Positions 5,473-53,949 of a stretch of DNA of 60,768 nucleotides are shown piece after piece (position 1 is the stretch's first letter; every line of letters starts with the position of its first letter). The DNA is from a virus (taxonomy: Duplodnaviria > Caudoviricetes). The DNA lies in IMG/VR virus record IMGVR_UViG_3300027985_001221, positions 1-60,768 of that record, one strand, 5' to 3'. The translations under genes were made by a program, and so were the position numbers. The notes under the pieces were generated by a model. It had not been told where the DNA came from and did no database searches. It saw nothing but the letters and a program-made list of their open reading frames with translations.

Positions 5473-7083
5473 ATGGAGACTAACATGTCGTATGCTGAGG
5501 ATCTTTACAAAATCTTTGCAGGGAATAAAAGATCATTTGGCCAGTTCACTCCTAAGAACGGCAAAATGTTCACTGAAAAAAGGGAGGTATCAATAGATGA
5601 TTTTAGAAATCACTTAGAAGGTAATTTAGGCATAGGTATTGTACCAATTCTGGATGATCAATCCTGTTTATGGGGTGCAATAGACATCGATAATCACGGA
5701 GACAAAGTAGTTAATATAGACTCAGTGGTAAAGGCGGTATGGGACAGGGGTCTTCCATTAGTTCCTTGCCGATCAAAATCGGGTGGCGTGCATCTATACC
5801 TATTTGGAGCAGATATCTTACCGGCTAAATTGGTAAGATTATTATTAACAAAGTGGGCAAAAGACCTAGGTTTCGGGGGGTCAGAAGTGTTCCCGAAACA
5901 AGTATCACTTCGAGATAATGAACTCGGCAACTGGATAAACTTACCATACTTCGAGGCGGATAAAACAAGTAGATACGCCATGAAGTTTGATAATGGCAAT
6001 GTCGAAAAGATATCACTAGATGATTTCATTATCGAGGCCAAGCATGTTGCAGTGTCCAAGGAAGTGCTACTCAAATTTGCAATACTTGGACACGAAGAAG
6101 CACCACCCTGCATACAACGTATGATACAGGGTGAAGTTGAAAGAGGATATCGTAACGAGTCAATCTATAACCTAACAATCTACTTTAGAAGGGCATTCTC
6201 GGACACTAACTACAGGGAATACGTCTATGATCTTAACATGGTCATTTTCGACAAACCCCTCCCGTTTGAAGAAGTAAAGAAAACTGTTGAGAGTGCCAGC
6301 CGCCGAGAGTATAAGTATAAGTGCATGGAAGAACCCTGCAAGGGGTTTTGCAGCCTAGATACTTGTATGCAGCGGAAGTGGGGGATTTCGAAGGAAGATT
6401 CAACTGCTGTTGCAGTGGGACTCCCGGAATTTTCTAAACTATCCATCATAAAAACAGATCCACCTCTATGGGAACTAACGGTTGAAAGTAAAAAGATAGT
6501 TCTCACCACCAAACAACTGAGATGTTTTCAGTCAGTAGCAGAAATGGTAATGGAAAAACTGCTACGAGTCATCCCGATGATGAAAAACGGGGATTGGATG
6601 AACAAATTATCCTCCCTGATGCAAGATGTAGAAGAAATCGAAACACCTGATGATGCTTCCGTTCCAGGCATCATAAAATCACGCCTACAAGAATTTTTAG
6701 AGAAAGCAGATTTGTCTAGTAATGGTACGGACACTGCAGAAAGAGATCTAATGGAAAGAGGTCTTCCCGTTGTGCAAGAGCTCGGCACAATGGGTGATCG
6801 TGTTGTAATGTTCAAGGGTACACAATTCATTAATTTCTTGAAGCGGACCAAATCAGAAGAGACAAAGGGTGCTGACCTCTGGACAATCATGAGGAGTATT
6901 GGGGTGTCCCATCGTCGGGTAAGAATTGGTGGAAATGTCAGGAATGTATGGCTAGCCCCACTGGATGATTACAATAGGACGATTCTTGATCCTGAATATG
7001 GCAAACCTAAGACCATTGAAGAAATGGAACAGGAAGAAAAGGATAGAGAGTCACGTAAATTAATAACTAAGATGGAGTTCTGA
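5473..7083 (+). CDS. AEP-superfamily primase/polymerase with PriCT-like and Cys-rich regions
   Basis: WGAIDID (DxD), RSKSGGVHLYLF and GNWINLPY motifs; APPCI...RNE; YKC..EPC...C....C. Confidence 0.85.
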   Translation: METNMSYAEDLYKIFAGNKRSFGQFTPKNGKMFTEKREVSIDDFRNHLEGNLGIGIVPILDDQSCLWGAIDIDNHGDKVVNIDSVVKAVWDRGLPLVPCRSKSGGVHLYLFGADILPAKLVRLLLTKWAKDLGFGGSEVFPKQVSLRDNELGNWINLPYFEADKTSRYAMKFDNGNVEKISLDDFIIEAKHVAVSKEVLLKFAILGHEEAPPCIQRMIQGEVERGYRNESIYNLTIYFRRAFSDTNYREYVYDLNMVIFDKPLPFEEVKKTVESASRREYKYKCMEEPCKGFCSLDTCMQRKWGISKEDSTAVAVGLPEFSKLSIIKTDPPLWELTVESKKIVLTTKQLRCFQSVAEMVMEKLLRVIPMMKNGDWMNKLSSLMQDVEEIETPDDASVPGIIKSRLQEFLEKADLSSNGTDTAERDLMERGLPVVQELGTMGDRVVMFKGTQFINFLKRTKSEETKGADLWTIMRSIGVSHRRVRIGGNVRNVWLAPLDDYNRTILDPEYGKPKTIEEMEQEEKDRESRKLITKMEF

Positions 7084-9716: not shown

Positions 9717-9949
9717 TTTGGAGAATGAGAGGAACCGCCATCATAGGAAGGATTAATGAAAAAATGGTGGCAACGGTATCTCCCAATGTTTTTTGTCAAA
9801 AGGAATCAAATGACCGGTACAATGTATTTGTATTGTTACCCAATGAAAAGGGCGATACAATGCATGTACATGAGGAAGACTCGGTTAAAGCAAAAGCATT
9901 AGCTGAAAAGATGGTTAATGACTGGTTTAAAGAGGTATGTAATGGTTAA
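9659..9949 (+). CDS. Hypothetical protein (tandem paralogue B)
   Basis: Aligns by eye with 9447..9716; start uncertain. Confidence 0.6.
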   Translation: MAGVEDKNMDGENKTLSSIIWRMRGTAIIGRINEKMVATVSPNVFCQKESNDRYNVFVLLPNEKGDTMHVHEEDSVKAKALAEKMVNDWFKEVCNG

Positions 9950-11654
9950 AATTCATTTTAAGGGTACCAAGTTCAGAATAAACTGCGGGTATCATGAAAA
10001 TGACTTTCCCACATCTCTTCCTGATGTAAAATGGCACAAGGCGACTAAAACTTGGCTTGCCAATCCTACCAGACTCAATGTATCAACAATGCATGAGTTG
10101 ATACCGAAGTTCAAAGCTATTGTCTCCCCGGAGGCACTGCAGAAAATATCAGAGGTAATGGAGGTAAAGATAACTACTTCTGATGTTTGGCCTGAAAATT
10201 ACGTATTCCATCGGACACCAAAACCCCATCAGCTTGATGGTGTCCGATTCCTTTATCCAATAAGAAACTCTGCATTATTGATGGATGTTGGTACTGGTAA
10301 AACTCAGGTGGCAATCGATGTAGCAAATGCCAGATATCAAAATAACATAATCAATGGGGTACTGGTAGTTGGCCTAGTATCAATTAAGTATAACTGGAGA
10401 GATGAAATATTGATAGAGGTTCCTGATGCTGATATCCATGTATTGGAAACAGCGGGGGCCGGGGTCAAGAATTATCACAAGTGGCTACAGAAAGAGGGAG
10501 GATTTAAGTGGCTAATTGTGGGTGTTGAATCATTTTCCAATGGTAGTGCTTATGAATTGTGTGAGATATTCTTGGCATCGGGCGGTAAGACAATAATAGT
10601 TGATGAATCATCCAGTATCAAGACACATAATGCTAGGCGAACTGAAAAGTGTATAGAGCTCGGTAAAAAAAGTAATTACAAAATGATAATGACCGGGACA
10701 CCAATAACACAAGGGCTACAGGACTTTTATTCTCAATTCGAGTTTTTGGACCCTGATATCATAGGAGTGGGAAACTTCTATGCTTTCAGAGGAAGATACA
10801 TGGTGATGGGTGGAAAAGATAATAAGATCCTGCTTGGCTATAAGAAAATGGATGAAGTGATCAGGGCAACAAAGCCTCACATATTCCAAGTTAGAAAGCG
10901 TGATGTTTTGAAGGATCTCCCGGAATCGTCCTACGCAGTTAGGTCGGTGGAGATGACAGGGGAGCAGAAAGCACTCTACAAAGAGCTTAAGGATAAGTTA
11001 AGGGTAGAGTATAATGGCAATAAGCTCACTGTGAAAAACGCAATGAATGTGATCCAACGATTGTCAGAAATCACGGGCGGAAACATAACCTATGAAATTG
11101 AGAACCCTGATATTTTGACTCGGGAAAAGAGGCCAATAATCTACCAGAGACAAAGGCTCAAAACAGCCCCCAAAGCATTAGAGTTAAAGAATTTTATAAA
11201 TGAATGCTCGGCTGATGATTCCATAATTATTTGGGCCGTTTGGACTGATGAAATCGATATAATAACTGAAATGTTGAGCGGTTCATTCCCACGAGATGAA
11301 TTTCTGACCATCCGGGGTGGGGGCACTGCCGAGGAAAGGCATAACATTGTTTCTGAGTTCAACAAGAAGAATGCCAGATTCCTAGTAGGAAATCAAAGGG
11401 TTGGTGGTATTGGCCTAAACATGACAGTATCATCAACGATGGTGTATTATAGTAACGATTTTTCACTGGAAAAACGGATACAGAGTGAGGGAAGGATAGA
11501 GCGAATGGGACAATTAAACAAGATGCTCTATGTCGATCTTCTCTGCCGTGGTTCAGTGGATGTAATGTCACATCAAGCACTGGCAAATAAGAACGATTTT
11601 GCCGAAACAGTCAGGGCAGCATTCGATAATGGAGGGTTATTAGATCTGATATGA
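9942..11654 (+). CDS. SNF2-family (SF2) helicase
   Basis: DVGTGKT Walker A, VDESS, MTGTP, GGIGLNM and QSEGRIERMGQ motifs. Confidence 0.92.
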   Translation: MVKIHFKGTKFRINCGYHENDFPTSLPDVKWHKATKTWLANPTRLNVSTMHELIPKFKAIVSPEALQKISEVMEVKITTSDVWPENYVFHRTPKPHQLDGVRFLYPIRNSALLMDVGTGKTQVAIDVANARYQNNIINGVLVVGLVSIKYNWRDEILIEVPDADIHVLETAGAGVKNYHKWLQKEGGFKWLIVGVESFSNGSAYELCEIFLASGGKTIIVDESSSIKTHNARRTEKCIELGKKSNYKMIMTGTPITQGLQDFYSQFEFLDPDIIGVGNFYAFRGRYMVMGGKDNKILLGYKKMDEVIRATKPHIFQVRKRDVLKDLPESSYAVRSVEMTGEQKALYKELKDKLRVEYNGNKLTVKNAMNVIQRLSEITGGNITYEIENPDILTREKRPIIYQRQRLKTAPKALELKNFINECSADDSIIIWAVWTDEIDIITEMLSGSFPRDEFLTIRGGGTAEERHNIVSEFNKKNARFLVGNQRVGGIGLNMTVSSTMVYYSNDFSLEKRIQSEGRIERMGQLNKMLYVDLLCRGSVDVMSHQALANKNDFAETVRAAFDNGGLLDLI

Positions 11655-13784: not shown

Positions 13785-14207
13785 ATGGATTACAAAACAT
13801 ATGAAGGAATGTCTCTAGTTGGACTCATTAAGGAAATGGGTGACGTCAAAGAGCAACTGGATAAGGTAACGGAGGAAAAGACAGCACTTCAAAAAACATA
13901 TGATTACCTCCGAATCAATCTTATTCCTGAATTAATGGCAGATGATGATCTGTCGACCATTACCGTAGATGGGGTTGGAAGGGTGTCCCTCACGGCTGAT
14001 ATCTATTCGAGTGTGCCATCTGAAAAGAAAGAGGCGGCATATGAATGGCTGCGGGAGCATCAACTCGGGGATATCATCAAGGAAACAATCAATTCGGGCA
14101 CTCTCAAAGCCACCATTAAAGCCCTCATGAAGAAAGGTGAGGAAGTGCCGGGGGATATATTCAAAGTGACCCCCTACACAAGGGCAAGTATTACCAAGGT
14201 TAAATAG
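13785..14207 (+). CDS. Conserved phage replication-region protein (coiled coil plus small beta domain)
   Basis: AYEWLREHQLGDIIKETI..TLKA pattern, of the kind seen in phage replication modules. Confidence 0.65.
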   Translation: MDYKTYEGMSLVGLIKEMGDVKEQLDKVTEEKTALQKTYDYLRINLIPELMADDDLSTITVDGVGRVSLTADIYSSVPSEKKEAAYEWLREHQLGDIIKETINSGTLKATIKALMKKGEEVPGDIFKVTPYTRASITKVK

Positions 14208-14329
14208 ACTATACGGTTCGCCATGCAAGTACATTGAAAAGGGGGTGGTTCCATTGGGCTAGTTATTGGTAGTATATATAAATGAAGAGCCAATTTCAAA
14301 GTAAAATTTCCAGATAGACCTGTTTTGTT

Positions 14330-14363
14330 AGGGTCAGTTCCACAGGGGGACTGGCCCATTTTT
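14330..14363 (+). terminator. Putative intrinsic terminator
   Basis: GGGTCAGTTCC/GGGACTGGCCC stem followed by ATTTTT. Confidence 0.5.
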
Positions 14364-14399
14364 CCAACATAGAATATACCGCTAAAGGTAGGTAACCAA

Positions 14400-15176
14400 A
14401 TGTCAAACAAAGAAGAAAAAAAGAACGAATTAACAGAGGCCAATTCCAATCAGATCATTATTGCATCAGGTGATGAACTACCCGCATACTTAAAAACTGA
14501 TTCGAACAGGGGATCCGAAGATGTTGGTATTGAAGATCTTACCATCCCCCGCCTTGAAATTGTCCAGGCCCTCTCCCCTTGCCGCAAAAAAACAAATGCC
14601 GCATACATCGAGGGGTGTGAAGAAGGCCAATTATATAATAGCATTACCCGTGAAATCTACGGTGACAAAGTTTTCATTATCCCGGTCGTATTCAAAAAGC
14701 AATGGCTCATTTGGAAAGATCGTGATGCAGGTGGCGGTTTCAAAGGTGCCTATGATACTGCCGAATTAGCAGCAGAAAGATTGATTGAGCTCGAAGAGGA
14801 AAATGCTGTTGGGCCATTTGAATCAGTGGACACTGCTCAACATATCTGCCTGTTGCTTAAACCTAATGGCAAGATCGAAGAGATTGCTATCTCGATGGCC
14901 AAGTCAAAAATGAAAGTGTCCCGTAAATTTAACTCCCTCGTCCGTATCAATGGCGGCGACAGATTCTCCCGTGTATATGAAGTAAGAACGGTAGAGGACA
15001 AATCTGAGAAGGGTGAATATATTAATCTCGACATCAAAACCATCGGCTTCCCATCGGAGGAAATGTACAGGAAAGCCGAGATACTCTTCGATGACATCAA
15101 ATCTGGCAAGCGCGAAGTAAAAGTCAGCGATAAATTCGATGAGGATACTGTTATGGAGGGTGACGTCAAGATCTGA
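14400..15176 (+). CDS. Putative phage-type single-stranded DNA-binding protein
   Basis: DLTIPRLEIVQALSP motif, acidic C-tail, position next to helicase and polymerase. Confidence 0.55.
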   Translation: MSNKEEKKNELTEANSNQIIIASGDELPAYLKTDSNRGSEDVGIEDLTIPRLEIVQALSPCRKKTNAAYIEGCEEGQLYNSITREIYGDKVFIIPVVFKKQWLIWKDRDAGGGFKGAYDTAELAAERLIELEEENAVGPFESVDTAQHICLLLKPNGKIEEIAISMAKSKMKVSRKFNSLVRINGGDRFSRVYEVRTVEDKSEKGEYINLDIKTIGFPSEEMYRKAEILFDDIKSGKREVKVSDKFDEDTVMEGDVKI

Positions 15177-15289
15177 CAGCCCTTTAGTACAGTTCAATGA
15201 TTCAGAGGGATGATAGGTGACACCTCCCGTTGCCGACAAGTGGCCTCCATCACTTCATCCCTTTTTTCTATTGGAGGCATGGTGACACA

Positions 15290-16717
15290 ATGAAATCAAC
15301 AGTTGTTTTGGGTAGCCCCGGCACAGGTAAAACTAGCAACTTGATTAAACGGATTGAAGAAGAAATTGAATCCGGCACTTCCAAAGACAGAATCCACGTA
15401 GTATCCCACACAAGAGTAGCAGCAAACGAAATAAAAGATAGGGCAGGTGCGCATGGTATCAATGCGTCAACTATCCACAGTATGGCATACCGATTCGGTG
15501 AGTTCATAAAAGAACAGGTTGTGTATGGCAAAGAGCTCAAAGACTTCTCGGAAAAATTAGGAATTCCTATGAAGGGCTTTGTTGACGCCACCTTCGATGC
15601 TTTAGAGGTCGGGGACGAGTACATCGCCATCATGAACGTTGCCAACAACACGATGTTGCCCTATGAGCAGGTCTACAAAAACTCTCACAGACCTGGGAAC
15701 TACAATGAATTCAAGTATTTCTACGAGAATTATGAGCATTGGAAGAGGGTGAATGGATTCATCGACTTCAATGACATGATAAAAGTGGGTAAATACGTTG
15801 GTGAGGACCCGATAGAAATCCTATTCATTGACGAGGCACAAGACCTATCAAAGTTGCAATGGGCATTCCTGCATGGGGTGATCAGGGAAAACAAGGTAAA
15901 AAAGGTAATTGTAACTGGCGATCCCGATCAGTCTCTATTCATTTGGGGCGGGGCCGATCGAAGTGGTATGATCAACTTCATAAAAGACTACAAGGCAAAA
16001 GTAGTTGAACTAGATCAATCATATCGAGTACCAATTAACGTCCATAGGATAAGTAGAGACATCATCTCAAGAGTGTCCAATCGGATTGACAAAACATACC
16101 ACCCAGCAGGACACTCCGGGATAATAAGGAAATACTCATCAGCGGATATGCTAGATTTTGACGATGGCGAAACTCTAGTGTTGTATAGAAACCATTCATT
16201 CAGGAGGGATATAGAAGGAATACTAATAGAAAAAGGGCTACCATATAGAGTATTAAATGGAAGACCCGGATTGTTTGAAAACAAATACTCAAATGCAATA
16301 CGTGCAGTACGAAAGATACAGAAAATGGGGCCAAATGATGTTGTTCCCCGGAGTATAGTCAACTGCATAAAATTAGTAGCCACCCCCAAGGCAAAAAAGA
16401 TACTAGAAAAGGGTGAGTTCAGCAAATTATTCACAATGAGGAGGAATGAAGTAATATCGTTCCCATTCAGTGAATGCCAATACTACATGGGGGTGGATGT
16501 ATCAAAGGAACCTAATATACTACTGTCATCAATACACGGGGCTAAAGGTATGGAGGCCGACAGGGTGATTTTATTAAACAGCATCACTCAAAGGGTGAGT
16601 GAAGAAATGTATAATGACCCTGACCCCGAGCATCAAGTATGGTATGTGGCAGTAACTAGGTCTAAGAATAAATTAGATATAGTCGATGGCTATGACGGAG
16701 ACATGTATAACATATGA
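15290..16717 (+). CDS. UvrD/Rep-like SF1 helicase
   Basis: GSPGTGKT, IDEAQD, GDPDQS, QSYR, HGAKGME, YVAVTRS. Confidence 0.92.
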   Translation: MKSTVVLGSPGTGKTSNLIKRIEEEIESGTSKDRIHVVSHTRVAANEIKDRAGAHGINASTIHSMAYRFGEFIKEQVVYGKELKDFSEKLGIPMKGFVDATFDALEVGDEYIAIMNVANNTMLPYEQVYKNSHRPGNYNEFKYFYENYEHWKRVNGFIDFNDMIKVGKYVGEDPIEILFIDEAQDLSKLQWAFLHGVIRENKVKKVIVTGDPDQSLFIWGGADRSGMINFIKDYKAKVVELDQSYRVPINVHRISRDIISRVSNRIDKTYHPAGHSGIIRKYSSADMLDFDDGETLVLYRNHSFRRDIEGILIEKGLPYRVLNGRPGLFENKYSNAIRAVRKIQKMGPNDVVPRSIVNCIKLVATPKAKKILEKGEFSKLFTMRRNEVISFPFSECQYYMGVDVSKEPNILLSSIHGAKGMEADRVILLNSITQRVSEEMYNDPDPEHQVWYVAVTRSKNKLDIVDGYDGDMYNI

Positions 16718-18543
16718 TATTTCCAAACATAATAGACGAAAGTTTAATATCAATAGACACAGAAACCACCAGCTTGGATTGGATGGAGTGTCATTGGTTT
16801 GGATTCTCACTGTCATTTGCGGATGATCAGGATTTTTATTTCGATCTGCGGGAGACACCTAAAGCCCTGGATTGGCTAAGGGACTCTTTGAAATATTACA
16901 GGGGGAGGATCGTAAATCACAACCTTAAATATGATGCACACGTCCTTAGGGAGAATGGAGTGGACATCATAGACCATAACATTGAATGTACTATGGTCAG
17001 GGCATGCCTGATCGATGAAAATAGAATCCTATACAATCTGGATGACGTAGCAAAGGACTGCATAGGAAGAGGAAAAGTTGATCCATATAAAGAGTTGGCT
17101 GGTCTATTTGGAGGTAAGGCCACCCGGAAAGATCAGATAGGAAATCTGGTTAGAGCACCTGTAGATCTAGTTAGTAGGTATGCAAAGGGTGACTCTCGCA
17201 CTGCCCTCGATCTGTGGAAATGGCAAGAAGACGTCATAAATAAAGATGACATATATGGTAATAACCTTTCCAATGTGTCCGGTCTGGAAAATGACGTATT
17301 GAAAGTAATCATAGACATGGAAAGCCATGGAGTAAAGGTCGATATAGACAGGGCCGAAAGATCAATGTATGAATTGGGGAGGGAGATAGACAGGGGCAAA
17401 AAAGAATTGAATAATCTGGCCGGATTTTCAGTCAACCCCAATCCTAGTGGATCTATCCACAAACTGTTCAATCCCAAATGGGACGATCAGACCGGAAAAT
17501 GGGTACTGTGCGATGGGACACTCACAGATTCAACAGAGGGTGGCAAAGCATCAATAGGGGCCGAGACATTGTTACGTATGTCCCATCCAGCAGCAGCCAT
17601 GATCTTGAGAATCAGAAAGCTTGCAAAATGTCGAGGTACGTTCATACAGAAACATATCCTTGAGAAACATAAAAATGGGAGGGTATATCCCAACATCAAT
17701 CAATGCAAGGGGGATGATGGTGGTACTAAAACTGGTAGATTGAGCTATGTTGACCCAGCATTGCAACAGATCCCATCCAGAGATAAAGAGATATCATCAA
17801 TGACTAGGGTATTATTTTTACCAGAGGATGGTGATAATTGGTACAGATTGGATTACAGTCAGGCTGATATGAGGGCCTTTGTGCATTACACCCAATCCCC
17901 GCCATTAATGGCAGCATATAAGAGGGATAAATACACAGATCTCCACAACCTCACTGCTAGTCTGACAGGACTTCCCCGAAATGCCCCGCACAGTGGTGGT
18001 GCCAATGCAAAACAGATAGGATTGGGCCTGATCTTCTCCATGGGAGAGGGTAAGATGGCTCAAGAAATGTCATTACCCTTCACCACCCGAGAGGGTAAAG
18101 GAAGGATATGGTTGGAACCGGGGGAGGAAGCATTAGAAATATTCTCACGTTTCCATGCTGCTGTTCCTGGGGTAAAGGAATTTTCCAAAAGGGCGGTTTC
18201 GGTCGCCAGAAACAGAGGATATGTAATATCGTTGATGGGAAGATTCCTTAGATTCCCGGACAAACACTTTTGCTACAAAGCAGCTGGATATCTTTATCAG
18301 TCGGCCACAGCAGAGTTCAACAAGGTCAAGATGGTTGATACGTGGAGAATGACCAGATATTCCGACACAAGACTCATACTATCAGTTCATGATGAATTGA
18401 ATTTTAGCTCTAATAATCCCGATAGAATGGATAAGGTGAAAGAAGAGATGGAAGATTTTCAATCACCAAAGGCTAGGTTAAAATTAAAAGTTCCGATGGT
18501 AGCAGATATGGGATCGGGACAGAACTGGTATGAGGCCAAATAA
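16714..18543 (+). CDS. dpoZ: Family A DNA polymerase (3'-5' exonuclease plus polymerase, no 5' nuclease), DpoZ-type
   Basis: DTETT and HNLKYD exonuclease motifs; TGRLS; DYSQ motif A; variant motif B PRN..HSGGANAKQIGLGLIF; KAAGYLYQ; VHDE motif C; purZ nearby. Confidence 0.85.
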   Translation: MIFPNIIDESLISIDTETTSLDWMECHWFGFSLSFADDQDFYFDLRETPKALDWLRDSLKYYRGRIVNHNLKYDAHVLRENGVDIIDHNIECTMVRACLIDENRILYNLDDVAKDCIGRGKVDPYKELAGLFGGKATRKDQIGNLVRAPVDLVSRYAKGDSRTALDLWKWQEDVINKDDIYGNNLSNVSGLENDVLKVIIDMESHGVKVDIDRAERSMYELGREIDRGKKELNNLAGFSVNPNPSGSIHKLFNPKWDDQTGKWVLCDGTLTDSTEGGKASIGAETLLRMSHPAAAMILRIRKLAKCRGTFIQKHILEKHKNGRVYPNINQCKGDDGGTKTGRLSYVDPALQQIPSRDKEISSMTRVLFLPEDGDNWYRLDYSQADMRAFVHYTQSPPLMAAYKRDKYTDLHNLTASLTGLPRNAPHSGGANAKQIGLGLIFSMGEGKMAQEMSLPFTTREGKGRIWLEPGEEALEIFSRFHAAVPGVKEFSKRAVSVARNRGYVISLMGRFLRFPDKHFCYKAAGYLYQSATAEFNKVKMVDTWRMTRYSDTRLILSVHDELNFSSNNPDRMDKVKEEMEDFQSPKARLKLKVPMVADMGSGQNWYEAK

Positions 18544-19473: not shown

Positions 19474-19656
19474 GTGCCCAACACAGTTAGAAAAATCAAT
19501 GGAAAATGGAGAGTAGTGGAAAAAGCCACTGGAAAAGTAACAACTAATTCGGCTGGCACCCCGGTGGATGGACCGGGACACTCCTCAAAAGCAGGGGCGG
19601 AAAGACAGGCTGCAGCCATAAACATCAACCAACACAAGAAAAAGAGGAAGAGATGA
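19474..19656 (+). CDS. Small basic protein
   Basis: GGAGGT RBS then GTG at 19474. Confidence 0.6.
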   Translation: MPNTVRKINGKWRVVEKATGKVTTNSAGTPVDGPGHSSKAGAERQAAAININQHKKKRKR

Positions 19657-20072
19657 CAAAAAGATACATAGGAACCAATATCATACATGCAAAACCAATG
19701 ACCTTGGGGCAGTATAATGAATACAGAGGATGGAAGATCCCTGAAAATGAAGATCCAAATAAAGCGGGATATCTTGTCATATATAGCGATATGTATGAAT
19801 CATGGTCCCCTGCCGATGTATTTGAAGAAGCCTACATCGAAACTGATGAAATGAATTTCGGATTGGCGTCGGAAGCAATGAGACGTGGAAACAGATGTTT
19901 TAGGGGCAAGTGGAATAAGAACCACAATCGTAAACACATCGAACTGGTCGAACCCGATAGTGTCAGTGAGATGACTGAACCATATTTTTTAATCAATGTT
20001 AATGGAACTACGTTCCCATGGACACCTCTGGCAGAAGATCTGTTAGCTGTCGATTGGTGTATTTTGGACTAA
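19653..20072 (+). CDS. DUF2829 / Thoeris anti-defence 2 (Tad2)-like protein with N-terminal extra domain
   Basis: MNFGLA.EA.RRG....R..WN...PWTP...DLLA.DW pattern. Confidence 0.7.
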   Translation: MTKRYIGTNIIHAKPMTLGQYNEYRGWKIPENEDPNKAGYLVIYSDMYESWSPADVFEEAYIETDEMNFGLASEAMRRGNRCFRGKWNKNHNRKHIELVEPDSVSEMTEPYFLINVNGTTFPWTPLAEDLLAVDWCILD

Positions 20073-20097: not shown

Positions 20098-20367
20098 ATG
20101 AAGAAATTCATTGCAGTGTCCCTCGTTTCGTTATCCTTTGCAGCATGCTCAACGTTGACCATCCAGGATTCGTACGTCGACGATCAGGGAAGGGAGCATA
20201 CTTGCGTTGCAAAGAGGTCAGCCTTTGGAATCGGGGTGTCCGATGTCGAGACTAATGTATGTAATTCTAATACTAAAATCGGAAATTCTGATTCCAGCAA
20301 GTCATTGGCCGACGCTATTGTTAATGCACTTGCTAACTATGTTAGGGCAACGGGGGACGCTCAATGA
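20098..20367 (+). CDS. Lipoprotein
   Basis: MKK plus hydrophobic stretch plus lipobox FAAC. Confidence 0.7.
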   Translation: MKKFIAVSLVSLSFAACSTLTIQDSYVDDQGREHTCVAKRSAFGIGVSDVETNVCNSNTKIGNSDSSKSLADAIVNALANYVRATGDAQ

Positions 20368-20540
20368 GTGTATGGAAAAGACAGGTAAAGAAATTCCAAT
20401 GTGATGTATGCGGCAAAGACTTCAACAACAAAAGGGCTTATTCCAATCACATGAAGGATAAGCACAATGGAGATGAATGCAAGGTATTCAAAGCCTTCAA
20501 AAATCAGGACGTTAAATACGGGGAGGGTCCACATGATTAA
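20364..20540 (+). CDS. C2H2 zinc-finger protein (58 aa), absent from the ORF track
   Basis: FQCDVCGKDFNNKRAYSNHMKDKH; ATGA overlap with the lipoprotein and 8-nt overlap with purZ. Confidence 0.75.
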   Translation: MSVWKRQVKKFQCDVCGKDFNNKRAYSNHMKDKHNGDECKVFKAFKNQDVKYGEGPHD

Positions 20541-21633
20541 TTTCAAAAACAAGATTAAGGCTAAGATTGATGTACTGTATGGCGGACAGTATGGCAGTGA
20601 GTCAAAACGACTATTCACCGAATTCTACACAAAAATGTTCAAAACTGACACAATCATTTCAAATTTTGGGCCGAATTCCGGGGGATTTGATTCATTTGGA
20701 AGCAAATGGTCAGTATTCCCGATCGGTTTTGATGGTAACATCATGTTGTCGGCGGGGTCAATCATCCCCGAGGAAAGATTCTGGAAGGAGGCAGAACAAC
20801 TGCCGTCCGGGGCTAACATTGTAATACACCCTAATGCCTGTGTGGTGAACGACGATCATCGACAAAGAGAGGCCGACAGGGTAACCATCGGTAGCACGAT
20901 GACCGGGACCATGGAAGCTGTCGTGCAAAAAATGCGGAGAGACCCCAACAATATCAATACAGCAGCGAACTCTGGCCTAAGGGAGTTCGTCGTTAGTCAA
21001 GAGGAATGGCTACAGAGAATTGTTGATTGTGAAAGTGCCCTGGTAGTGGTCCCCCAAGGCCATTCTTTGTCGATCAATCATGGTATGTACCCCTTCTGTA
21101 CCAGTAGAAACACCTCCCCTCAACAGGGTCTTGCCGATGCCGGAATCCCAATCTGGTTGGTAAGGGATATTATCGGCTGTTTCAGGACCTATCCTATCAG
21201 GGTGGCCAATCGCTATGATGATGATGGTAATATGATTGGTTATTCTGGTCCATGTTATGATGACCAGAAAGAAATGACATGGGATGAAATAGGTGTCCCG
21301 GCTGAATATACCAGCATCAGTAAAAAGATGAGAAGGGTGTTCAATTTTTCCATCAAACAATATGTTGAGTCGGTGTTGATGAATGGATGTACTAAGGTAT
21401 TCATGAATTTTATGAATTACCTAGGACATGCCGACTCACAGCAATTCTTGGTCAACCTCAATGAATTGGGACTCCCTGCCAGAGTGGAATGGGCTGGATA
21501 TGGTCCAAAATGTACGGATATTGCCAAGGTCAAGTATGTTGACAAAGCCGAATATGAAAAGATGATGGTGAATGATGCCGGAATATTTAGCACACTAAGG
21601 GGAGGATTCGATAATCCGGGAAGGGAGAACTAA
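20533..21633 (+). CDS. purZ: PurZ-like N6-succino-2-amino-2'-deoxyadenylate synthase (adenylosuccinate synthetase homologue)
   Basis: GGQYGSESK (Ser at the PurA catalytic Asp position), IGST..G, QG.SLS, YPFCTSR, RTYPIRV, RRVF, NFMNY (ATP-type, not TKLD); GGAGG RBS before ATG 20533. Confidence 0.88.
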   Translation: MINFKNKIKAKIDVLYGGQYGSESKRLFTEFYTKMFKTDTIISNFGPNSGGFDSFGSKWSVFPIGFDGNIMLSAGSIIPEERFWKEAEQLPSGANIVIHPNACVVNDDHRQREADRVTIGSTMTGTMEAVVQKMRRDPNNINTAANSGLREFVVSQEEWLQRIVDCESALVVVPQGHSLSINHGMYPFCTSRNTSPQQGLADAGIPIWLVRDIIGCFRTYPIRVANRYDDDGNMIGYSGPCYDDQKEMTWDEIGVPAEYTSISKKMRRVFNFSIKQYVESVLMNGCTKVFMNFMNYLGHADSQQFLVNLNELGLPARVEWAGYGPKCTDIAKVKYVDKAEYEKMMVNDAGIFSTLRGGFDNPGREN

Positions 21634-21636
21634 AAA

Positions 21637-21927
21637 ATGATATCATTGGACACTAACCATCCAGTAACTAATACTGCAGCTGAATTGTGGGGAGAAAATG
21701 GCCAAGTCAACATTCTACAGGAAGAATGTGCAGAACTGATCTCGGCCATAGCAAGAAGAAATAGGGGGAGGAATGGTAACGATGAGGTTGCAGAGGAGGC
21801 TGCTGATGTGTTAGTGTCCTTGATGTCTGTTATCCCAATCCTAGGGATAGAAGAAGATGTAATTAGGCACATGAATTTTAAGATAAATCGTTTGGACAAG
21901 CGAATAAAATCATTAATGGAGGGATGA
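21637..21927 (+). CDS. mazZ: MazG-like nucleotide pyrophosphohydrolase (MazZ-like)
   Basis: EECAEL...EEAADV (ExxE/ExxD), between purZ and datZ. Confidence 0.75.
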   Translation: MISLDTNHPVTNTAAELWGENGQVNILQEECAELISAIARRNRGRNGNDEVAEEAADVLVSLMSVIPILGIEEDVIRHMNFKINRLDKRIKSLMEG

Positions 21928-22511
21928 TGTCAGAACTAAATATAAAAGACATACTACGTTCGGGTCATGTCATCAGGTGGCAAATAGTAAGGACAGTGAG
22001 AGATCAAACTCTGGCAGAACATCTATTCACTGTAACAATCCTGAGTATCGAGATGTCAAACAGAGTATTCACGAAGGGTATATCTGATCAGATGAAACTA
22101 AAAATGATCGATTGGGCCTTGCGTCATGATATGCCCGAAATCTATACAGGAGATGTTGCCACGCCAGTAAAGAAAAGAATGAAGGCAGTGGACCCTGGAT
22201 TCTTTGACACCATCGAACGTGGTATATCAAAGAAATACTCGGACGCAAAGGATTCAGTATCAGGGACACCCTTCGAAGTAATAGTCAAGCTGGCGGATCT
22301 GCTGGATGGCATATCATTTCTCGATACAGAAGGGTTGGGGGACCATGCTAAGGACGTGTCCAGAAAGCTGAAAACTGAATATGCTAATCTGGTGGAGACA
22401 GCCAAGGTAAGGTTTTTTGATCTCAACTGGAATGAATCAACAAAAATGTTGTATGAGGTGACAGAGGGTAAGGACAGTCACCTTGAATATGAATCAAATG
22501 GAGGAATTTGA
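21924..22511 (+). CDS. datZ: HD-domain dATP triphosphohydrolase (DatZ-like)
   Basis: R.GHV.RW.IVRT...QTLAEH, HDMPEIYTGD..TP.K, VKLAD. Confidence 0.85.
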   Translation: MMSELNIKDILRSGHVIRWQIVRTVRDQTLAEHLFTVTILSIEMSNRVFTKGISDQMKLKMIDWALRHDMPEIYTGDVATPVKKRMKAVDPGFFDTIERGISKKYSDAKDSVSGTPFEVIVKLADLLDGISFLDTEGLGDHAKDVSRKLKTEYANLVETAKVRFFDLNWNESTKMLYEVTEGKDSHLEYESNGGI

Positions 22512-23122
22512 TGTCAGTAAAAAATGATTGCGGCAATGAGGTACATAAATTCTTGTGGTTTGATACTGAAACTACAGGGACCGACCCAATAAAACATGAC
22601 ATAATCCAAATAGCTGGCCAAATTGTGGTGGGAGGAATAGTGATGGACAGCTTCGATTACAGATGTCAACCCTTTGATTGGGACACTATTGAGGAAAAAG
22701 CCCTTGAGAAGAATGGCATAACTAGGGAAGAAATAGCCACATTCCCGGAGCCAGATATAATCTACGGAAAGCTAAAGCGCATGTTCAGGAAGTACATCAA
22801 TCCCTATGATAAGGCTGACAAGTTCATTGCCGGGGGTCAAAATGTAAGATTTGACATCGATATGACCCATCACTTCTTCAAGAAGAATAAAGATGATTTT
22901 TTCTTCTCCTTCGTCCGGGCGGGAGTTTTCGACACACTACATATGGCGACGATGCTGGAGGTCAAGGAAAGGAAAAGGATATTCAAGAAGGGATACAAGC
23001 TTGAACAGCTTTGTGAGGAACTCGGAGTGCCATTGGAGAATGCCCACGATGCATTGGCCGACATCACTGCCACTCGGCAAGTTGCAAACATACTCTGGAA
23101 AAGATTGGTGATGGGGGAATAA
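22511..23122 (+). CDS. DEDDh 3'-5' exonuclease (DnaQ-like)
   Basis: DTETTG, N..FD, H.ALAD. Confidence 0.9.
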   Translation: MSVKNDCGNEVHKFLWFDTETTGTDPIKHDIIQIAGQIVVGGIVMDSFDYRCQPFDWDTIEEKALEKNGITREEIATFPEPDIIYGKLKRMFRKYINPYDKADKFIAGGQNVRFDIDMTHHFFKKNKDDFFFSFVRAGVFDTLHMATMLEVKERKRIFKKGYKLEQLCEELGVPLENAHDALADITATRQVANILWKRLVMGE

Positions 23123-30406: not shown

Positions 30407-33400
30407 CTATCTATTGTAAGTGAATGTTTTTCTGTACCACTTTGAAGCAGTATCCAATTTCTTTTTATCGTCGGCAGTTAATGATGAATAAAACATGTTC
30501 CTATATTTCTTAGGAAGACCACCAGTGGGCTCGGACATTTGGATGCTTGCACTAATCCCCTCCCATGTACCACCCTCATCAGCGTATTTATTCAAGTATT
30601 TATCTGCAGCCTTAAGATCACTGTACTTCAAAGCAGTCTTAAAGTTATACAAAGCATCAGATTTGTCATTTATTGCACTGCGATGTCCTTTTTCTCCTTG
30701 CTGTTCCATGAAGTTATTAACAAGGTTTCTAACGTGAAAGTAAGCTGATTCACCCGGATCAACGTTATACCACAATTTTTGGGTAAAGTCATCAGCTAAA
30801 CTCTTTGTTGGCAGCCCCATTGCCCTTCTAGAAAAGATTTCAAGTGAGAATTGTTTAAAGACGTAATCCCAATTATTCCTAATTGGCTTGGGATCAAGGA
30901 TACTTGGGTAATCAGTTGTACCTGTCATCACTGTACCAATTGTCTTGAATATCGGTCGGGTGCCGAACCATAATTTCTCGAAAGGAGCAACTGCCGATTC
31001 GGTAAGCTTTGTACCAACTGTCTTCTTACCTGTCATCACGTCCCCGATGTCATATAGGGCGTCTTCACCACCGAACCACGACAAAGCATCCCTGAATGCT
31101 CCCGATATTGGAAGATAACGTATTGAACCATCCGATCTTCGGCCTAATATCATGTGCATCTGTCGTTTTTGATCTCTTGACAATTCATCCTCTTCATCCC
31201 CAAAGAAGGTGGCATTCCACATTGATACCATGGCAGAGAACATTAAGAACTTTAATCCCATCTTAGATGCTCTCCATGTCAGGTTAGTCGCAATTCTTGC
31301 TGTGCCATTACCTTCATGCTTTATGTTTTTCATCATTTTTACATATCGAGGAGCATTTATTTCTATCCATGAGTAGAAAGGAATAAGATTGCTTCTCATC
31401 CACTCCCCGGATTTACTCAACGACCCATAATCACCAATCAACTCCCTCGACAGTTTTGCAGCAATTTCATTTTTATTCGTCATTTCATCAATTTCATGTG
31501 GGTTGGATGCCCCATAAACAATTTCTCCCTTGGCAATCCGATCTTTAAAGTAACGATAGGCTGCAAGACGAAGAATGTTTTCCCTGAAGTTAGTTGCTTC
31601 TTTTGTACGTTGCCAATATTTTATGGCCTGATTGGTCTTTACCCCCATCATATTTTTGAATTCAGATTGAATGTCAGATATTTCATGCATTACAAATCCA
31701 GAGCCAATAACATCAAATTTATGGGCTTCCTGCAACTCATCGGACACTGCCTGACTGGTCGACCCAGCAAATTTATTGACGTTAAATGGGAGTTTTGCTC
31801 CATATGAATTCATATCAGCGGCCAGATCCTTCATTGCAGCAGCGGTATATTTCAAAATGCGAGGATCATATGCCATAGCTATATCGAGGTCACCAGATAT
31901 GTTGTTAACAGTATACCTAAAGACTCTGAATGGGTTTAGGAGTGTCCATTTCTTCCATCCTGATACCATTTGTCGTTGGATGATGTCCATTACACCTTTT
32001 TTACCTTCCTGCTCTCCCGCCTGATCTAGTGCTTTAGCAACTTCCTCTGGTATTACCCATATTTCATCTTGCCCTTTAACATAAGCCTTTTTGATTTGAT
32101 CAGGGTCAATCAACTTACCAGCAAGTACATTCTCTACTGCCTGTGCGCTGATCGTATTTGCTTTTCTCCATGCACTGCCGGGGGCAGGTTTCCACATCAC
32201 ATAGCCCTTGGGCATTACCTGACTAAGGTTGTCAACGTTAGGATCGTTCTTTACTTGATCCATCAAATCATGGTATTTATCATATTTCTCCCTAATGTTT
32301 TCCTTTCTATCATATACCTCAATAGCGGAAATTGCCTGGGACATTACTTCAAATTCTGATGTGATGTATTCAGTGTTATAATCCTGTATGCTCCCGGATC
32401 TGGCTTTCTGCCACCCTCTCTTGGTGATTCTAACATCACCTCTAGTAGTTGGGGTGAATGCGTATTCATCACCCATTGCCATTTTTTCCAACACTTGATG
32501 GTGGAAGTATGCATCATCCTTAGCCAATTCCTTCTTTAACATTTTATTTTTGACTAGTTTTTGCTTAATATCCCTCATCATTGCTTTACGTTTAGCAAGA
32601 GCCTGCATTACCTTTTGACTCTTACGTGCTTCATTTTGGAAATGTCGGACACTCTCCGCAACTTCTGCAACTGTACGGAATCCAAATGGTAGATGACCAT
32701 CCTCAAGAAGGGAATATCCGTTAACATCGGGGGTAGCATCTTTCATGATGTCAGCAAGAACAAGATTCATGGTGAATACAACATTTTCATTCTCATCCAT
32801 GTTACCTACAATGTTATAGATGTCCTTCCATGCTTTGTAGGCCCCATAATGATCGGAATTCTTAATTAGCCTCAATTCATTTTTAAGATAACCATGTTCA
32901 TTGGGTTTCAAAGAGGTATATGTTCTAGTAAAACTTTTACCCAATTCATTGAATCTATCTTTAAGCTTTTCAAGTTTACCCTTTACTTGAATCCCCCTAC
33001 TAGCTTCTATTCTTTTCTGTACTTGGGGATGGGGATCAACCGGATTGATCGAATATTTAAACCTGTTATCGTTTGGATCAAAATTACCAGTGTTAAGGGT
33101 TGCGCTCTTTATCTGGTTTGGTTCAAAAGTAACAAGGTAATCGGCCTCTTTTATCCAGATGCTATCAAATCCCAGGTTTCTTAATTTAGCCGCCAACATC
33201 TTTGACTGTTGTACATTCTCAATGTCCTGTGCCTGTTTCAGGGTCATCGGGTAAGGATTCTCGGCTTTTATATAGAATTCATGTATGTTATCACCATATC
33301 TGGTTACCCTCTCCAGATGGGGAGAAAAGAAAAATCCAAGACCAGAGGTGGCATGGTTGGTGCTGGAGCCAATCTTACTTTTATCGAATTCTTCGAAGGC

Positions 33401-36400
33401 TTTGTCGGTAGCATGGTATACTATCGCTGGCTCTCCTCCTCTAGTAATCTTACTGTCACCGAACCACTCCTTGAAGGCTACACTAGAAGTGTCCACCGGC
33501 TTGAACTCTTGTTTCTTACTTTCCTTTACATCAAATTCAATATCAGGATCAATAAATCCAAGTTCAGAAATAAGGGCATCCAATTTTTCAAAATCAGTGC
33601 TAAATTTGTATTTATTCAACTCCGACTCGGACACTCTAGAGGAATCTCCACCCAATAAATCATTTACTTTTTGTTGGGCCTCTTTATTCCTCTTCAATTC
33701 CCCCCTTAATTTGGTTATTTCCTCATTTTCTTTACTCTTTGCATTCCTCGCCGCTGCTCTCTCCATGGTGGCCTTGATATAATCGTCGACTTCCTCCACC
33801 TTGCTCTTTACAAAATCATCGACAACTTTATTTTCACCCACGCGCTTTGCTCGCCTCGGTCCAGTTTCCCTTTTTACTTTAATGTCCTGATTTGACAATA
33901 GCTTATCAATCTCTTCAATGGTAAGGGGACCATTTTTATCAATCATTTCTGATACGTTTTTAACTATATCAGAATCAACCTCCCCCGAGGAAGGCGGGGG
34001 GTTCTTCTTTTTAGTGGTCAGGTCACTATCGGGGGAGGTTGAAACTTTATTTTCCTTTTGCCAATTTTTGAGTCTACCCTCCATTGCGTTGACTGATAAC
34101 AAAGCCTTTCCTCTAAAGAATACAGCCTTATCCCCTTCAACGTCCATCCCGAGGACTTCTTCAAAATATTTATCATTCTTTCCAGACAGATTAATAACAA
34201 GATTTTTATTGTTTTGTCTACACCATTTTACCATTATACTGAACTCCTCTGGAGTAGATATCATGGCATCTTCTTCACTGACAGTAATGTAGTTATCAGT
34301 GGTAGATTCAACTGGTATAGTTTCTTCATCTATTTTTGTTATTTTGGTTGACATTCCGGGTTTTGCATCAGTATATTTCTGACCAACGGATTTTCCACCA
34401 AAGAACTTCTTAAATTCCTTTTTATTATTTACATGCATATTTGGCTCAAATACAGCATCCGAACCAACTTTTTTAAACCCGAGATGTTCAACAGCAGTGG
34501 AATTTGTGGCTCCTCCCAATATTACTATTGGACGTTTTTCTTCCCTACCACGTTTTATCAATTCCCTCATATCTTGATATGACATGGACTTAGCATCATC
34601 AACAGATACATCTATTGAATTGGTTCTGTCATATTCTTTTTCTGCTTTTTTGTTTTCTGCCTTTCTTTCCTTTTTCAGGTTATTGATATCTTTTCCAGAT
34701 TTAACTATCAATTTACCATCGGTATCAACTATCCCATCATTTTGAAGGGATGTCATTATTTCTTTTGCTCTGGAATAACCAACTCCCATTCTACTTCTTA
34801 TCTGATTGATACTGATTTCACCATCCCTGAGGATATAATCAACTACGTCCCCATATTTGTCATCCTGGGGCTTCTCGGTATTAGCCTGTTCTACCGTTAT
34901 TTCCTCTGGTTCATTGCTTTTGAGATTATCCCCCCTTACCTTTTTTACTTCTCCCGTATCCTTCATTTTTATCTTGATGTTACCAAAGAAACTGCCTACT
35001 ACTGTAGCTTCTTTACCATCGTACAAAACTTCTTTCCCAACATAGTTGGATTTAAGCCGTAATTCAAGTTTTTTCCGGGCATCCTCGGTAAGGAATTGGG
35101 GAGCGGCCATCCTCTTCTGTTTAAACATTTTGAAGGATGCAGCTTTCTTTGCTTTAACCCATTGTATTTTATTGTCATCCTTCTTATATTGTTTTTTAGC
35201 CGCCTTCATTTCTTCCTGATAGGTGGCATCAATTTCGTCCCACTTAGTTTTTTGCTCGGGGGTGATATTAGCAGTGATTCCACCGAAGGTTACTTTTTCA
35301 CCAACAGAGGGATTGGACACTGCTGCAGCCTTCTCCTTGGCTGTCATACCTGATTTATTAGTAGGGGAGACTTTCTGAGAAGTGTCCGTTTTGGAATTTT
35401 TATTCTTCCAATTTTTCTCCATGGCTTCATTGGATGCCTCCCCTTTCATCTCAATGACTTCTGCCCTTACAAATTCTCTAGTGTCCGGGTCCCTGTCCCA
35501 AAGAGTCATTTCACTACCCTTTGTTGTTACCCTTCTTTCCTTGCCTCCGGCGAGCCAATCTCTAGATTTAGAAACACGCTCGTTCATGGTAGATATCGTG
35601 GTACGGACTGTCTCGGTTGAGGTCGCTCCGGGGGTCGGGCCAGCCGATGGCCCCGGCGATGGGGTCCCGGCTGCAGCGGTCGGGCTCTCGGGCTCGGCGG
35701 CGGGGGTCAAGCCGCTCGGCTCGGTCGAGGCCGTCCCAGGGCTCCGGGAGCCTTCTACGTTATTGTTAATAGCCTCAGGTTTTGGGGACCCTTTGGAAAT
35801 AGGCTCTTTTGCCAGTTTTCTATTAGCATACTTCTTATAGACAGTGGTAATGGTTTGACGCATTCTGTTCATATCATCAAATATGAAGTCAGAAGATTGA
35901 ACTCCCCTTATTCTCTTAAATACCCTGCCCACTACATTTTTAGCAGCATTAATGATTCTCCAGAATTTTGGTTTATCCTTTGCATACATCATATCCCAAA
36001 ATTTAGGGTCACTAAATTCATTACCAGAAAAATCAGCAAGTATCTCCTCAACTACTTGATAATTGTCCATTTCTGGTATGCCATGTTTTTCTGTAAGTTC
36101 GTTGTATTTTTTACGATACTTACCATACACGTCCATGTTCATTAATGATACAGCGGTTTTTTCCAAATAATCATATGTTTCTGGATCTTCCGTTTTCAGT
36201 GTATGGATCATTTCATGACCCAATATAAACATATGAGGTTTAGCAGCCTTTGAATTCATCATTATTACTTCTGGACGATTAGAGTCTGCTATTCCATCTG
36301 GTATTGGTGCTTTATCATTGAGATGATCATAAAAAATAATCTTTTTATCAAATATCTTGCCGATCGATTTAATTGTATTAGCATGTTCGGGAAGAGATTC

Positions 36401-53676: not shown

Positions 53677-53949
53677 TTATAATGTTTCTTTTCTAGAATC
53701 AACGGGATCACCTTCCCATAATTCTTCATACATATCACTTTCACTGAATGGTTTAACAGTGTCATTTTGTCTGTCGGATTTTCTCCTCTTTTTGCCCCAC
53801 CGACAATCAGTACAATTTGCGCTTCTTTCATATTCCATTGATTTGTATTTGACCAGATGGAACATGTTAATGCAGAGGTACACCAATAATCCTATAACTA
53901 TTATCAGTTCCCCGAGAAGAAATAATTCAAAATAATCTACTGGTTCCAT
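53677..53949 (-). CDS. Small membrane protein
   Basis: N-terminal transmembrane helix. Confidence 0.5.
   Translation of the reverse strand: MEPVDYFELFLLGELIIVIGLLVYLCINMFHLVKYKSMEYERSANCTDCRWGKKRRKSDRQNDTVKPFSESDMYEELWEGDPVDSRKETL

Follow-up and report, generated by a model that had tools for sequence, protein, structure and literature searches.

A derived PurZ-like lineage that lacks the conserved histidine and appears to have rebuilt its triphosphate site

The DNA analysed here, called the window throughout, is the whole 60,768-nucleotide IMG/VR virus record IMGVR_UViG_3300027985_001221 (Duplodnaviria; Caudoviricetes). It encodes a protein of the adenylosuccinate synthetase family, P0001, that is closest to the phage PurZ enzymes and departs from them at residues that are otherwise nearly invariant. 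P0001 shares these departures with a whole clade of proteins and, judged from the sequences, the rebuilt site of this clade is a variant within the known PurZ enzymes that is selectively maintained. E. coli PurA residues are named below in the literature numbering, one below the numbering that counts the initiator Met; we take this to be the convention in use, in agreement with the titles of the PDB entries for K16Q, R143L and R303L. The gene and the motifs on which the argument turns are as follows.

20533-21633, plus strand: purZ-like gene encoding P0001 (366 residues), with a single terminal stop codon and no internal stop in its translation.
20593-20610, plus strand: P-loop GSESKR, residues 21-26; Ser22 is the PurZ hallmark and Arg26 stands in place of a family-invariant Gly (E. 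coli Gly17).
20620-20622, plus strand: Glu30, an acidic clade-specific residue one helical turn past Arg26.
20671-20688, plus strand: shortened "40s loop" PNSGGF, residues 47-52; Gly51 is the equivalent of His41, and the equivalent of Thr42 is deleted.
21043-21063, plus strand: VVVPQGH, residues 171-177; Val172 is the equivalent of Glu221, the Gln of E. coli (Gln224) is retained as Gln175, and His177 is new to the clade.
21310-21336, plus strand: aspartate loop TSISKKMRR, residues 260-268; Thr260, Arg267 and Arg268 are kept, and Thr is changed to Ser at 261 and 263.
21406-21420, plus strand: NFMNY, residues 292-296, a PurZ-type adenine pocket of the (d)ATP donor.

A first-pass annotation of the window, made from the letters alone, had reported GSESKR, PNSGGF, VVPQG and TSISKKMRR as altered and IGST, YPFCTSR, PIRV, NFMNY and GYGP as intact. 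All of the altered motifs are present at these positions in the translation and in the alignments, and all of the intact ones are found in the translation. Its description of a full-length reading frame coupled to mazZ and datZ also holds, the genes being separated by a 3-nt gap and then joined by a 4-nt overlap. An alternative longer frame opens at the ATG at 20467. The start at 20533 was preferred because a Shine-Dalgarno-like sequence, GGGGAGGG, precedes it by 5 nt, because it overlaps, as ATGA, the stop codon of the upstream open reading frame (ORF), and because it agrees with the N-termini of homologues. That upstream ORF (20364-20540, plus strand) encodes 58 residues having a zinc-finger-like pattern, C-x2-C...H-x5-H, and the ATGA overlap of its stop with the purZ start suggests translational coupling.

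PF00709 (adenylosuccinate synthetase) was the sole Pfam family found on P0001 (46.7 bits, cut-off 27). The best PDB matches by sequence were the PurZ proteins of phages phiVC8 (6fm1, E 3.8e-47) and S-2L (7odx, 1.8e-44), with PurZ0 (7vf6, 9.2e-20) and archaeal PurA (1.6e-12) far behind. The purA models scored well below their thresholds (TIGR00184, 60.9 bits against a cut-off of 395.55; NF003295, 93.4 against 368). In the HMMER alignments with the PurZ proteins of phiVC8 (6fm1, 6fko and 6tnh) and S-2L (7odx), GSESKR lies opposite GSTGKG, the gapped PNSGG-F opposite PNAGHT, VVVPQG opposite EGAQG or EGCQG, and TSISKKMRR opposite TTVTKK or TTVTKL, the facing sequence in the family alignment being TTVTKKVRR.

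These features are those of a clade rather than of one odd protein. A word-indexed search of 5.8 billion proteins gave 1351 candidates, 279 of which scored E <= 1e-10, and the best 120 of the 279 were tabulated. Among these 120, identity to P0001 falls in a step: P0002 to P0046 lie at 47-65% and all later proteins at 42% or less. An Arg in the P-loop (K-R), together with PNSGG followed by a two-residue gap and loss of the His, is found in all 44 of the first-group clusters that cover the N-terminus (the N-terminally truncated P0041 and P0046 stand outside this count), and K-G and G-H are found in every protein from P0047 on. Forty-four protein clusters, independent of one another, and loci from three collections all show the clade states. 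An exhaustive search of representatives clustered at 50% identity gave 1521 matches at E <= 0.001, the only clade members among the best 150 being P0029 and P0041. When 50,697 phage records were searched by tblastn, 201 had a match, all below 60% identity and the best at 33-38%, and no clade isolate was found there. In metagenome-assembled genomes (MAGs) the clade proteins carry the plain label "adenylosuccinate synthetase". The accessible portions of the literature on PurZ, PurZ0 and Z-genome phages describe no His-less PurZ or PurA, and they contained nothing relevant on the role of Glu221. According to bioRxiv 2025.10.22.683976, of 17 PF00709 proteins encoded on contigs that it scored as unmodified, 3 fell apart from E. 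coli PurA.

To locate the changes we compared alignment columns among 43 clade rows, 142 other PurZ-type rows and 18 PurZ0 rows. Of 55 columns conserved at 85% or more in the 142 other PurZ rows, the clade keeps 49 and alters the following six.

Residue 26: Arg in 43/43 clade rows; Gly in 142/142 other PurZ and 18/18 PurZ0 rows; E. coli Gly17.
Residue 51: Gly in 43/43 clade rows; His in 141/142 other PurZ rows; E. coli His41.
Position after 51: deleted in 43/43 clade rows; Thr in 135/142 other PurZ rows; E. coli Thr42.
Residue 172: Ile, Val, Ser or Leu in the clade; Glu in 140/142 other PurZ rows; E. coli Glu221.
Residue 261: Ser in 41/43 clade rows; Thr in 139/142 other PurZ rows; E. coli equivalent not named.
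Residue 263: Ser in 43/43 clade rows; Thr in 140/142 other PurZ rows; E. coli Thr301.

Gly17, His41 and Glu221 are all present in the 18 PurZ0 rows and in E. coli PurA. The clade also has residues that are nearly fixed within it and occur at 10% or less elsewhere: Glu30, Tyr32, Trp59, Ser73, Thr124, His177, Asn193 and Ser280. Residue 30 is Glu in 42 of the 43 clade rows and Asp in the other, the other PurZ proteins having Gly, Ala or Ser (1% Glu), and His177 is found in 42/43 clade rows versus 8/142 rows of other PurZ. The events unique to the clade are the change of Gly17 to Arg, the loss of His41 and Thr42, and the loss of Glu221, together with the gains of Glu30, Tyr32, His177 and Asn193. 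Thus, the atypical P-loop of the first-pass annotation was borne out for its Arg and not for the Glu of GSE, which is the rule in PurZ0 and occurs in five His-containing PurZ proteins. GSE and the leading GGQ were rejected as clade markers, since both are found in PurZ0 and in the His-containing P0122, P0123, P0128, P0131 and P0132. P0122 also has both aspartate-loop Ser residues, yet its His, Gly17 and Glu221 are intact. Residue 124 (E. coli Arg131) was considered as a sign of a new amine donor and was rejected, as it is already Gln or Ser in the phiVC8 and S-2L PurZ proteins.

Across 28 clade members having a mean column identity of 52%, 75 columns are invariant. Across 10 loci, Arg26 is encoded by five codons from both Arg codon families (CGA, AGA, CGG, CGC and AGG), Gly51 by all four Gly codons, and Ser263 by AGT, AGC and TCA. 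On this codon evidence the new residues are held through extensive synonymous turnover by purifying selection. The proposal of the first-pass annotation that the changes are coordinated and not a product of decay is upheld by the clade-wide conservation, this codon turnover and the 49 of 55 columns kept.

The phylogenetic trees had as references the PurZ proteins of phages phiVC8, S-2L, SH-Ab 15497 and Bm1, the PurZ0 proteins of Ghobes, HunterDalle and Cicada together with PurZ0 relatives from the search, the PurA-like gene of Flavobacterium phage MaF61, and E. coli purA. In a FastTree analysis of 205 rows the clade formed one branch (43/43, support 100, stem 0.63), and PurZ0 formed a branch of its own (18/18, support 99). 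A quick IQ-TREE search under the LG+C20 mixture model used 64 chosen rows, 141 of the 205 being left out. There the clade was again recovered (16/16, Shimodaira-Hasegawa-like approximate likelihood ratio test (SH-aLRT) 100), and its stem of 0.98 was the longest branch inside PurZ. Together with the PurZ proteins of S-2L, phiVC8, SH-Ab and Bm1, the clade lay in a group of 43 (SH-aLRT 99), and PurZ0 stood apart from this group (support 98). The backbone within the group of 43 is weakly supported. As PurZ0 and E. coli PurA both have the usual residues, the clade states are derived wherever the clade attaches.

A second His-less PurZ lineage came to light in these comparisons. P0183, the one row of the 142 that lacks His, has the 40s loop PNSGGW, and among 117 further P0183 relatives only P0389 (63% identical) shares the loss. 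P0183 and P0389 resemble the clade in having PNSGG followed by an aromatic residue and no His, and differ from it in that Gly17 (GSCGKG), Glu221 and TTVT are retained. The lineage is known from these two clusters only, the contigs being 3.6 and 4.1 kb long. P0183 was considered as an intermediate sister of the clade and was rejected, since it falls outside the SH-aLRT 99 group containing the clade in the mixture-model tree. On that tree the His losses of P0183/P0389 and of the clade are independent.

Given the clade alignment, we transferred to it the ligand contacts of S-2L PurZ from the accessible part of PMC8342488; the phiVC8 roles are second-hand, via that article and bioRxiv 2025.10.22.683976. 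The S-2L contacts reported in PMC8342488 are N49, S131, T132, R146' (from the partner subunit), Q190, T205, R240 and V241 for the dGMP (deoxyguanosine monophosphate) pocket and exclusion of the 2'-OH, N305, F306, Q308, G335 and P336 for the adenine pocket, and S23, G25, G51, H52 and T53 for the triphosphate, H52 and T53 touching the triphosphate of dATP. The equivalents of all eight dGMP-pocket and 2'-OH-exclusion residues are invariant in the 43 clade rows, Val224 being the 2'-OH excluder, and Arg136, contributed by the partner subunit and extending to the 5'-phosphate, is likewise conserved. The conserved guanine/dGMP pocket comprises Tyr/Phe20, Gly21, Ser22, Asn48, Ser49, Gly120, Ser121, Thr122, Gln175, Tyr/Phe188, Cys189, Thr190, Arg223 and Val224, most of them in 43/43 rows. 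The residues found in every row include Gly21, Ser22, Asn48, Ser121, Thr122, Arg136, Gln175, Thr190, Arg223, Val224, Thr260, Arg267, Arg268, Phe293 and Asn295. The set that recognizes the 2-amino group, according to the available parts of bioRxiv 2025.10.22.683976 and PMC8342488, is also present (Tyr20, Gly21, and Ser22 and Thr260, each 43/43). In the aspartate loop, Arg267 and Arg268 are invariant in the clade and in other PurZ proteins, and Lys265 (phiVC8 K267, E. coli R303) is nearly so.

In the adenine pocket Phe293 and Asn295 are found in 43/43 rows, Asn292 in 32/43, Gly324 in 39/43 and Pro325 in 31/43, N292, F293 and N295 matching S-2L N305, F306 and Q308. The donor pocket reads N-F-x-N-Y, as in PurZ, and not M-x-D-Q, as in PurZ0, which speaks for ATP or dATP as the donor. 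The triphosphate contacts are a different matter. In S-2L numbering S23 and G51 are kept, G25 is Ala or Ser in 36/43 rows, H52 is Gly in 43/43 and T53 is deleted in 43/43, and the adjacent G27 is Arg in 43/43. On the mapped contacts, the remodelling is confined to the phosphate-handling corner of the active site. As the mapped dGMP residues, aspartate-loop Arg residues and adenine-pocket residues are kept, the different amine donor, substrate or product entertained by the first-pass annotation is not favoured.

An AlphaFold2 model of P0001 was built from a 28-sequence alignment (mean predicted local distance difference test score 82.7, predicted template modelling (TM) score 0.83, with a low-confidence stretch at residues 180-192). 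The top five Foldseek matches in the PDB were all PurZ chains (TM 0.76-0.82; 7odx, 0.79/0.82), with PurZ0 at TM 0.70 and bacterial PurA at about 0.65, the latter at about 15% identity in the structural alignments. In the model the P-loop helix spans residues 22-36 and Arg26 and Glu30 form an i/i+4 pair. In a classical Walker A motif the position of residue 26 holds a Ser or Thr, the side chain of which points toward the metal and the beta-phosphate. From its place at this Ser/Thr-equivalent site and its pairing with Glu30 we infer that Arg26 may fill the space left by His41 and Thr42.

The purZ-like gene lies amid genes that are expected of a phage that makes Z (2-aminoadenine) DNA.

16714-18543, plus strand: DpoZ-type family A DNA polymerase (NF038380 phage_DpoZ_1, 702.4 bits, cut-off 500).
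21637-21927, plus strand: MazG-like nucleotide pyrophosphohydrolase in the mazZ position (PF03819, 27.5 bits, cut-off 22).
21924-22511, plus strand: DatZ-like HD/YfbR-like phosphohydrolase (PF12917, 42.8 bits; PF13023, 36.7 bits).
22508-23122, plus strand: RNase T/DnaQ-like 3'-5' exonuclease (PF00929, 72.6 bits).

The best phage matches of the DpoZ of the window were polymerases of PurZ-carrying phages (42-43% identity). The DatZ proteins of the window and of five related loci keep the R-W-x-I motif (S-2L R19, W20 and I22), which aligns with S-2L and phiVC8 DatZ; in S-2L DatZ, I22 excludes 2-amino purines and W20 excludes ribose (accessible part of PMC8065100). The EExxE and EEAADV acidic metal motifs of the MazG-like protein align with S-2L MazZ, and the protein is N-terminally shorter than S-2L MazZ. 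The record is rated 100% complete and this purZ-like gene is its only PF00709 gene.

Related loci were taken from the three collections and duplicates and near-identical contigs were merged, giving 11 distinct contexts having at least 1.2 kb downstream of purZ (L028 and L032 were dropped as short). DatZ is encoded downstream of purZ in 10 of the 11. In the same 10 the slot between purZ and datZ is filled, by a MazG-like gene in four and by a PF18909 dATP/dGTP diphosphohydrolase (DUF5664) in six (among them L002 11048-11509 and L004 11067-11486), two of the six being Pfam-confirmed. As two unrelated enzymes occupy one slot, we argue that what is selected is the function of the slot, dGMP supply. 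The swap parallels the convergence described in the accessible part of PMC12884076. In 9 of the 11 contexts the gene after DatZ encodes the RNase T-like exonuclease. Of the two contexts that lack this gene, one (L031) is a contig of 2.1 kb, which stops some 950 bp beyond DatZ. The neighbouring DpoZ, DatZ and dGMP-supplying genes are those of the ordinary Z pathway, and the different modified purine suggested by the first-pass annotation is not favoured.

When set against the characterized enzymes, the clade shares with the PurZ proteins of phiVC8 and S-2L the fold (TM 0.76-0.82), 33-35% identity over about 320 residues, the Ser in place of PurA Asp13, the dGMP pocket, the KK/RR aspartate loop, the N-F-x-N-Y pocket and the purZ-mazZ-datZ neighbourhood, and it is nested with known PurZ in the tree. 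It differs from them in having Arg for the Gly that follows the P-loop Lys, no His-Thr triphosphate pair, a hydrophobic residue for the Glu before G-x-Q-G, Ser for the two Thr residues at the tip of the aspartate loop, and the additional invariant Glu30, Tyr32, His177 and Asn193. With PurZ0 (Gordonia phage Archimedes, 7VF6; Ghobes; Arthrobacter and Microbacterium phages) it shares the P-loop start GGQ-[FY]-GSE-[ASG]-K and the Ser for Asp13. However, PurZ0 keeps Gly17, His41 and Glu221 (18/18), has the M-x-D-Q donor pocket and forms a separate group (support 98-99), and according to the accessible part of PMC12884076 the PurZ0 phages carry DutZ and DmtZ rather than the DatZ found in the clade context. 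With PurA (E. coli; Pyrococcus horikoshii, 5K7X) it shares the superfamily fold, Asn193 (which matches the PurA TSSN) and the equivalents of Lys16, Asn38, Gly40, Thr129, Arg143, Gln224, Thr239 and Arg305. It differs from PurA in Ser22 for Asp13, Gly51 for His41 and the changed Thr42, Glu221 and Gly17.

We think it most probable, at roughly 0.6, that P0001, a member of a distinct derived PurZ lineage, is active and converts dGMP to dSMP by way of a phosphoryl-transfer site that has been rewired. Such an enzyme would condense dGMP and aspartate using ATP or dATP to give N6-succino-2-amino-dAMP (dSMP), the precursor of dZTP (the deoxynucleoside triphosphate of Z) for a 2-aminoadenine genome. The rebuilding, on the stem of the lineage, would be limited to the region of the active site in which the gamma-phosphate is held and transferred. 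The guanidinium group of Arg26, positioned by Glu30, would extend into the beta/gamma-phosphate region formerly filled by His41 and Thr42 and provide there a positive charge for the transfer of the phosphate. Glu221, no longer needed, would have given way to a hydrophobic residue, and His177, two residues past the catalytic Gln, might be an alternative or additional compensator. The enzyme would then be active and the virion DNA would probably contain Z. In a phage in which dATP is destroyed and DpoZ is encoded, dZTP must come from some source, and P0001 is the sole candidate. This need, the intact substrate sites and the selection acting on the new residues make an active synthetase the best reading. 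Of the overall interpretation in the first-pass annotation, the coordinated and maintained changes stand, the replacement of the His by the new Arg is a proposal based on position, and the changed amine donor, substrate or product is not favoured, the corresponding sites being kept.

Several observations weigh against an active dSMP synthetase. His41 of E. coli PurA is reportedly essential, the H41N protein being said to be inactive, and the two S-2L residues lost throughout the clade, His52 and Thr53, make up two of the five triphosphate contacts. The best NCBIfam model for P0001 is the PurZ model NF038379, and the score of 197.4 bits lies below the cut-off of 300. The clade proteins P0029 and P0019 scored 235 and 207, phiVC8 PurZ (397) and Ghobes PurZ0 (346) passed, and the His-containing P0122 failed at 285. 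The MazG-like protein of the window has Val and Ser at the guanine determinants of S-2L MazZ, I56 and D60, so that its supply of dGMP is assumed and its nucleotide specificity may differ from that of S-2L MazZ. Finally, in the exceptional one of the 11 contexts, L019/L025 (contigs of 136 and 228 kb, one of them placed in an Omnitrophota MAG), no DatZ, MazZ or DpoZ is encoded within 10 kb of the purZ-like gene.

The same scaffold might instead carry out a changed chemistry, using another phosphoryl donor or mode of activation, another metal requirement or another amine donor, such that the product would not be dSMP and might belong to a pathway to a purine other than Z. We consider this unlikely. 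In its favour, the six altered columns all lie on the nucleoside triphosphate or aspartate side of the pocket, the stem (0.98) is the longest inside PurZ, the clade has the additional specific residues Thr124, His177, Asn193 and Ser280 with loss of Lys or Gln at 124, and both the sub-threshold PurZ score and a MazG-like partner that lacks the S-2L guanine determinants would fit. However, the adenine pocket is of the PurZ type, the 2-amino recognition set and Val224 are kept, Arg267 and Arg268 are invariant with Lys265 nearly so, and the change from Thr to Ser retains the hydroxyl group and is found at both positions in P0122, in which His, Gly17 and Glu221 are intact. Residue 124 already varies in phiVC8 and S-2L. 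Moreover, the DatZ Ile that excludes 2-amino purines is kept and the polymerase passes the DpoZ model, both of which are expected if the product is Z. A specific form of the idea, in which an in-cis P-loop Arg works with an altered metal or donor, or the slimmer Ser-Ser loop admits another amine and the product is a 2-aminopurine derivative distinct from dSMP and Z, would make the clade a third functional class beside PurZ0 and PurZ; this too we regard as doubtful.

That the protein is catalytically dead or repurposed, as a dGMP/ATP-binding regulator or structural partner that transfers no phosphate, seems quite improbable to us, even though a residue reportedly essential in PurA is lost, the PurZ model score is sub-threshold and the His-less P0183 and P0389, which have no compensating Arg and lie on contigs of only about 4 kb, could represent decay. 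A dead protein would not be expected to have retained 49 of the 55 conserved columns (Lys25, Gln175 and the two Arg residues of the aspartate loop among them), to have gained residues that are themselves invariant, with Arg26 kept through synonymous turnover, or to share its operon, as it does in 10 of 11 contexts, with DatZ and a supplier of dGMP. Furthermore, the complete-rated genome has no second PF00709 gene, and a phage with DatZ and DpoZ and no dZTP source would presumably starve its own replication. Ordinary variation, or an assembly artefact or sequencing error, we consider refuted. The first-pass annotation would have abandoned its interpretation had these residues varied commonly among ordinary PurZ enzymes, and in the other PurZ rows Gly17 (142/142), His41 (141/142) and Glu221 (140/142) scarcely vary at all. 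An artefact would hardly produce the same states in 44 independent clusters and in loci of three collections, with the frame open and free of stops.

Within the adenylosuccinate synthetase superfamily His41 is regarded as an unchanging part of the catalytic machinery, and the clade offers a natural experiment on how a phosphoryl-transfer site can be rebuilt. As clade proteins score below the NCBI PurZ cut-off, surveys of Z-genome phages that rely on the PurZ model may miss this lineage, including phages of a hydrothermal-vent metagenome. If the unlikely changed chemistry were true, it would point to a further modified purine. The sequencing runs that contain window DNA are labelled hydrothermal vent metagenome; two of the runs contain 0.99 of the sampled words and may represent the source sample.

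Other genes were noted in the course of the work. In the L019/L025 context the neighbours (L019 8494-12600) encode an ATP-dependent DNA ligase, YqeY, a TROVE/Ro60-like protein, a GntR regulator and a ClpB-like AAA protein, and one ORF matches nucleoside 2-deoxyribosyltransferase weakly, at 23 bits against a cut-off of 28.8. In the window, just upstream of the Z module, 19653-20072 (plus strand) encodes a Tad2-like domain (PF11195, 54.5 bits), of a family of anti-Thoeris proteins. A replication module (5473-7083, 9918-11654, 13785-15176 and 15230-16717, plus strand) encodes an AEP primase (AEP-TOTE and PriCT_1), an SNF2 helicase and a UvrD-type helicase, as well as Pam3 gp33-like and gp34-like proteins, and most of its members are syntenic in related loci. 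On the minus strand, 30407-38452 is an ORF for 2681 residues in which ART-PolyVal ADP-ribosyltransferase (64 bits) and FtsK-gamma (34.5 bits) domains were recognized and which resembles the giant "polyvalent" phage proteins, and 51088-53199 and 53937-55454 gave a match to a P22-like portal protein (44.9 bits) and, at 20 bits and so below the cut-off, a weak match to a large terminase. Near 26 kb and 56 kb, at switches in gene orientation, the sign of the GC skew is reversed.

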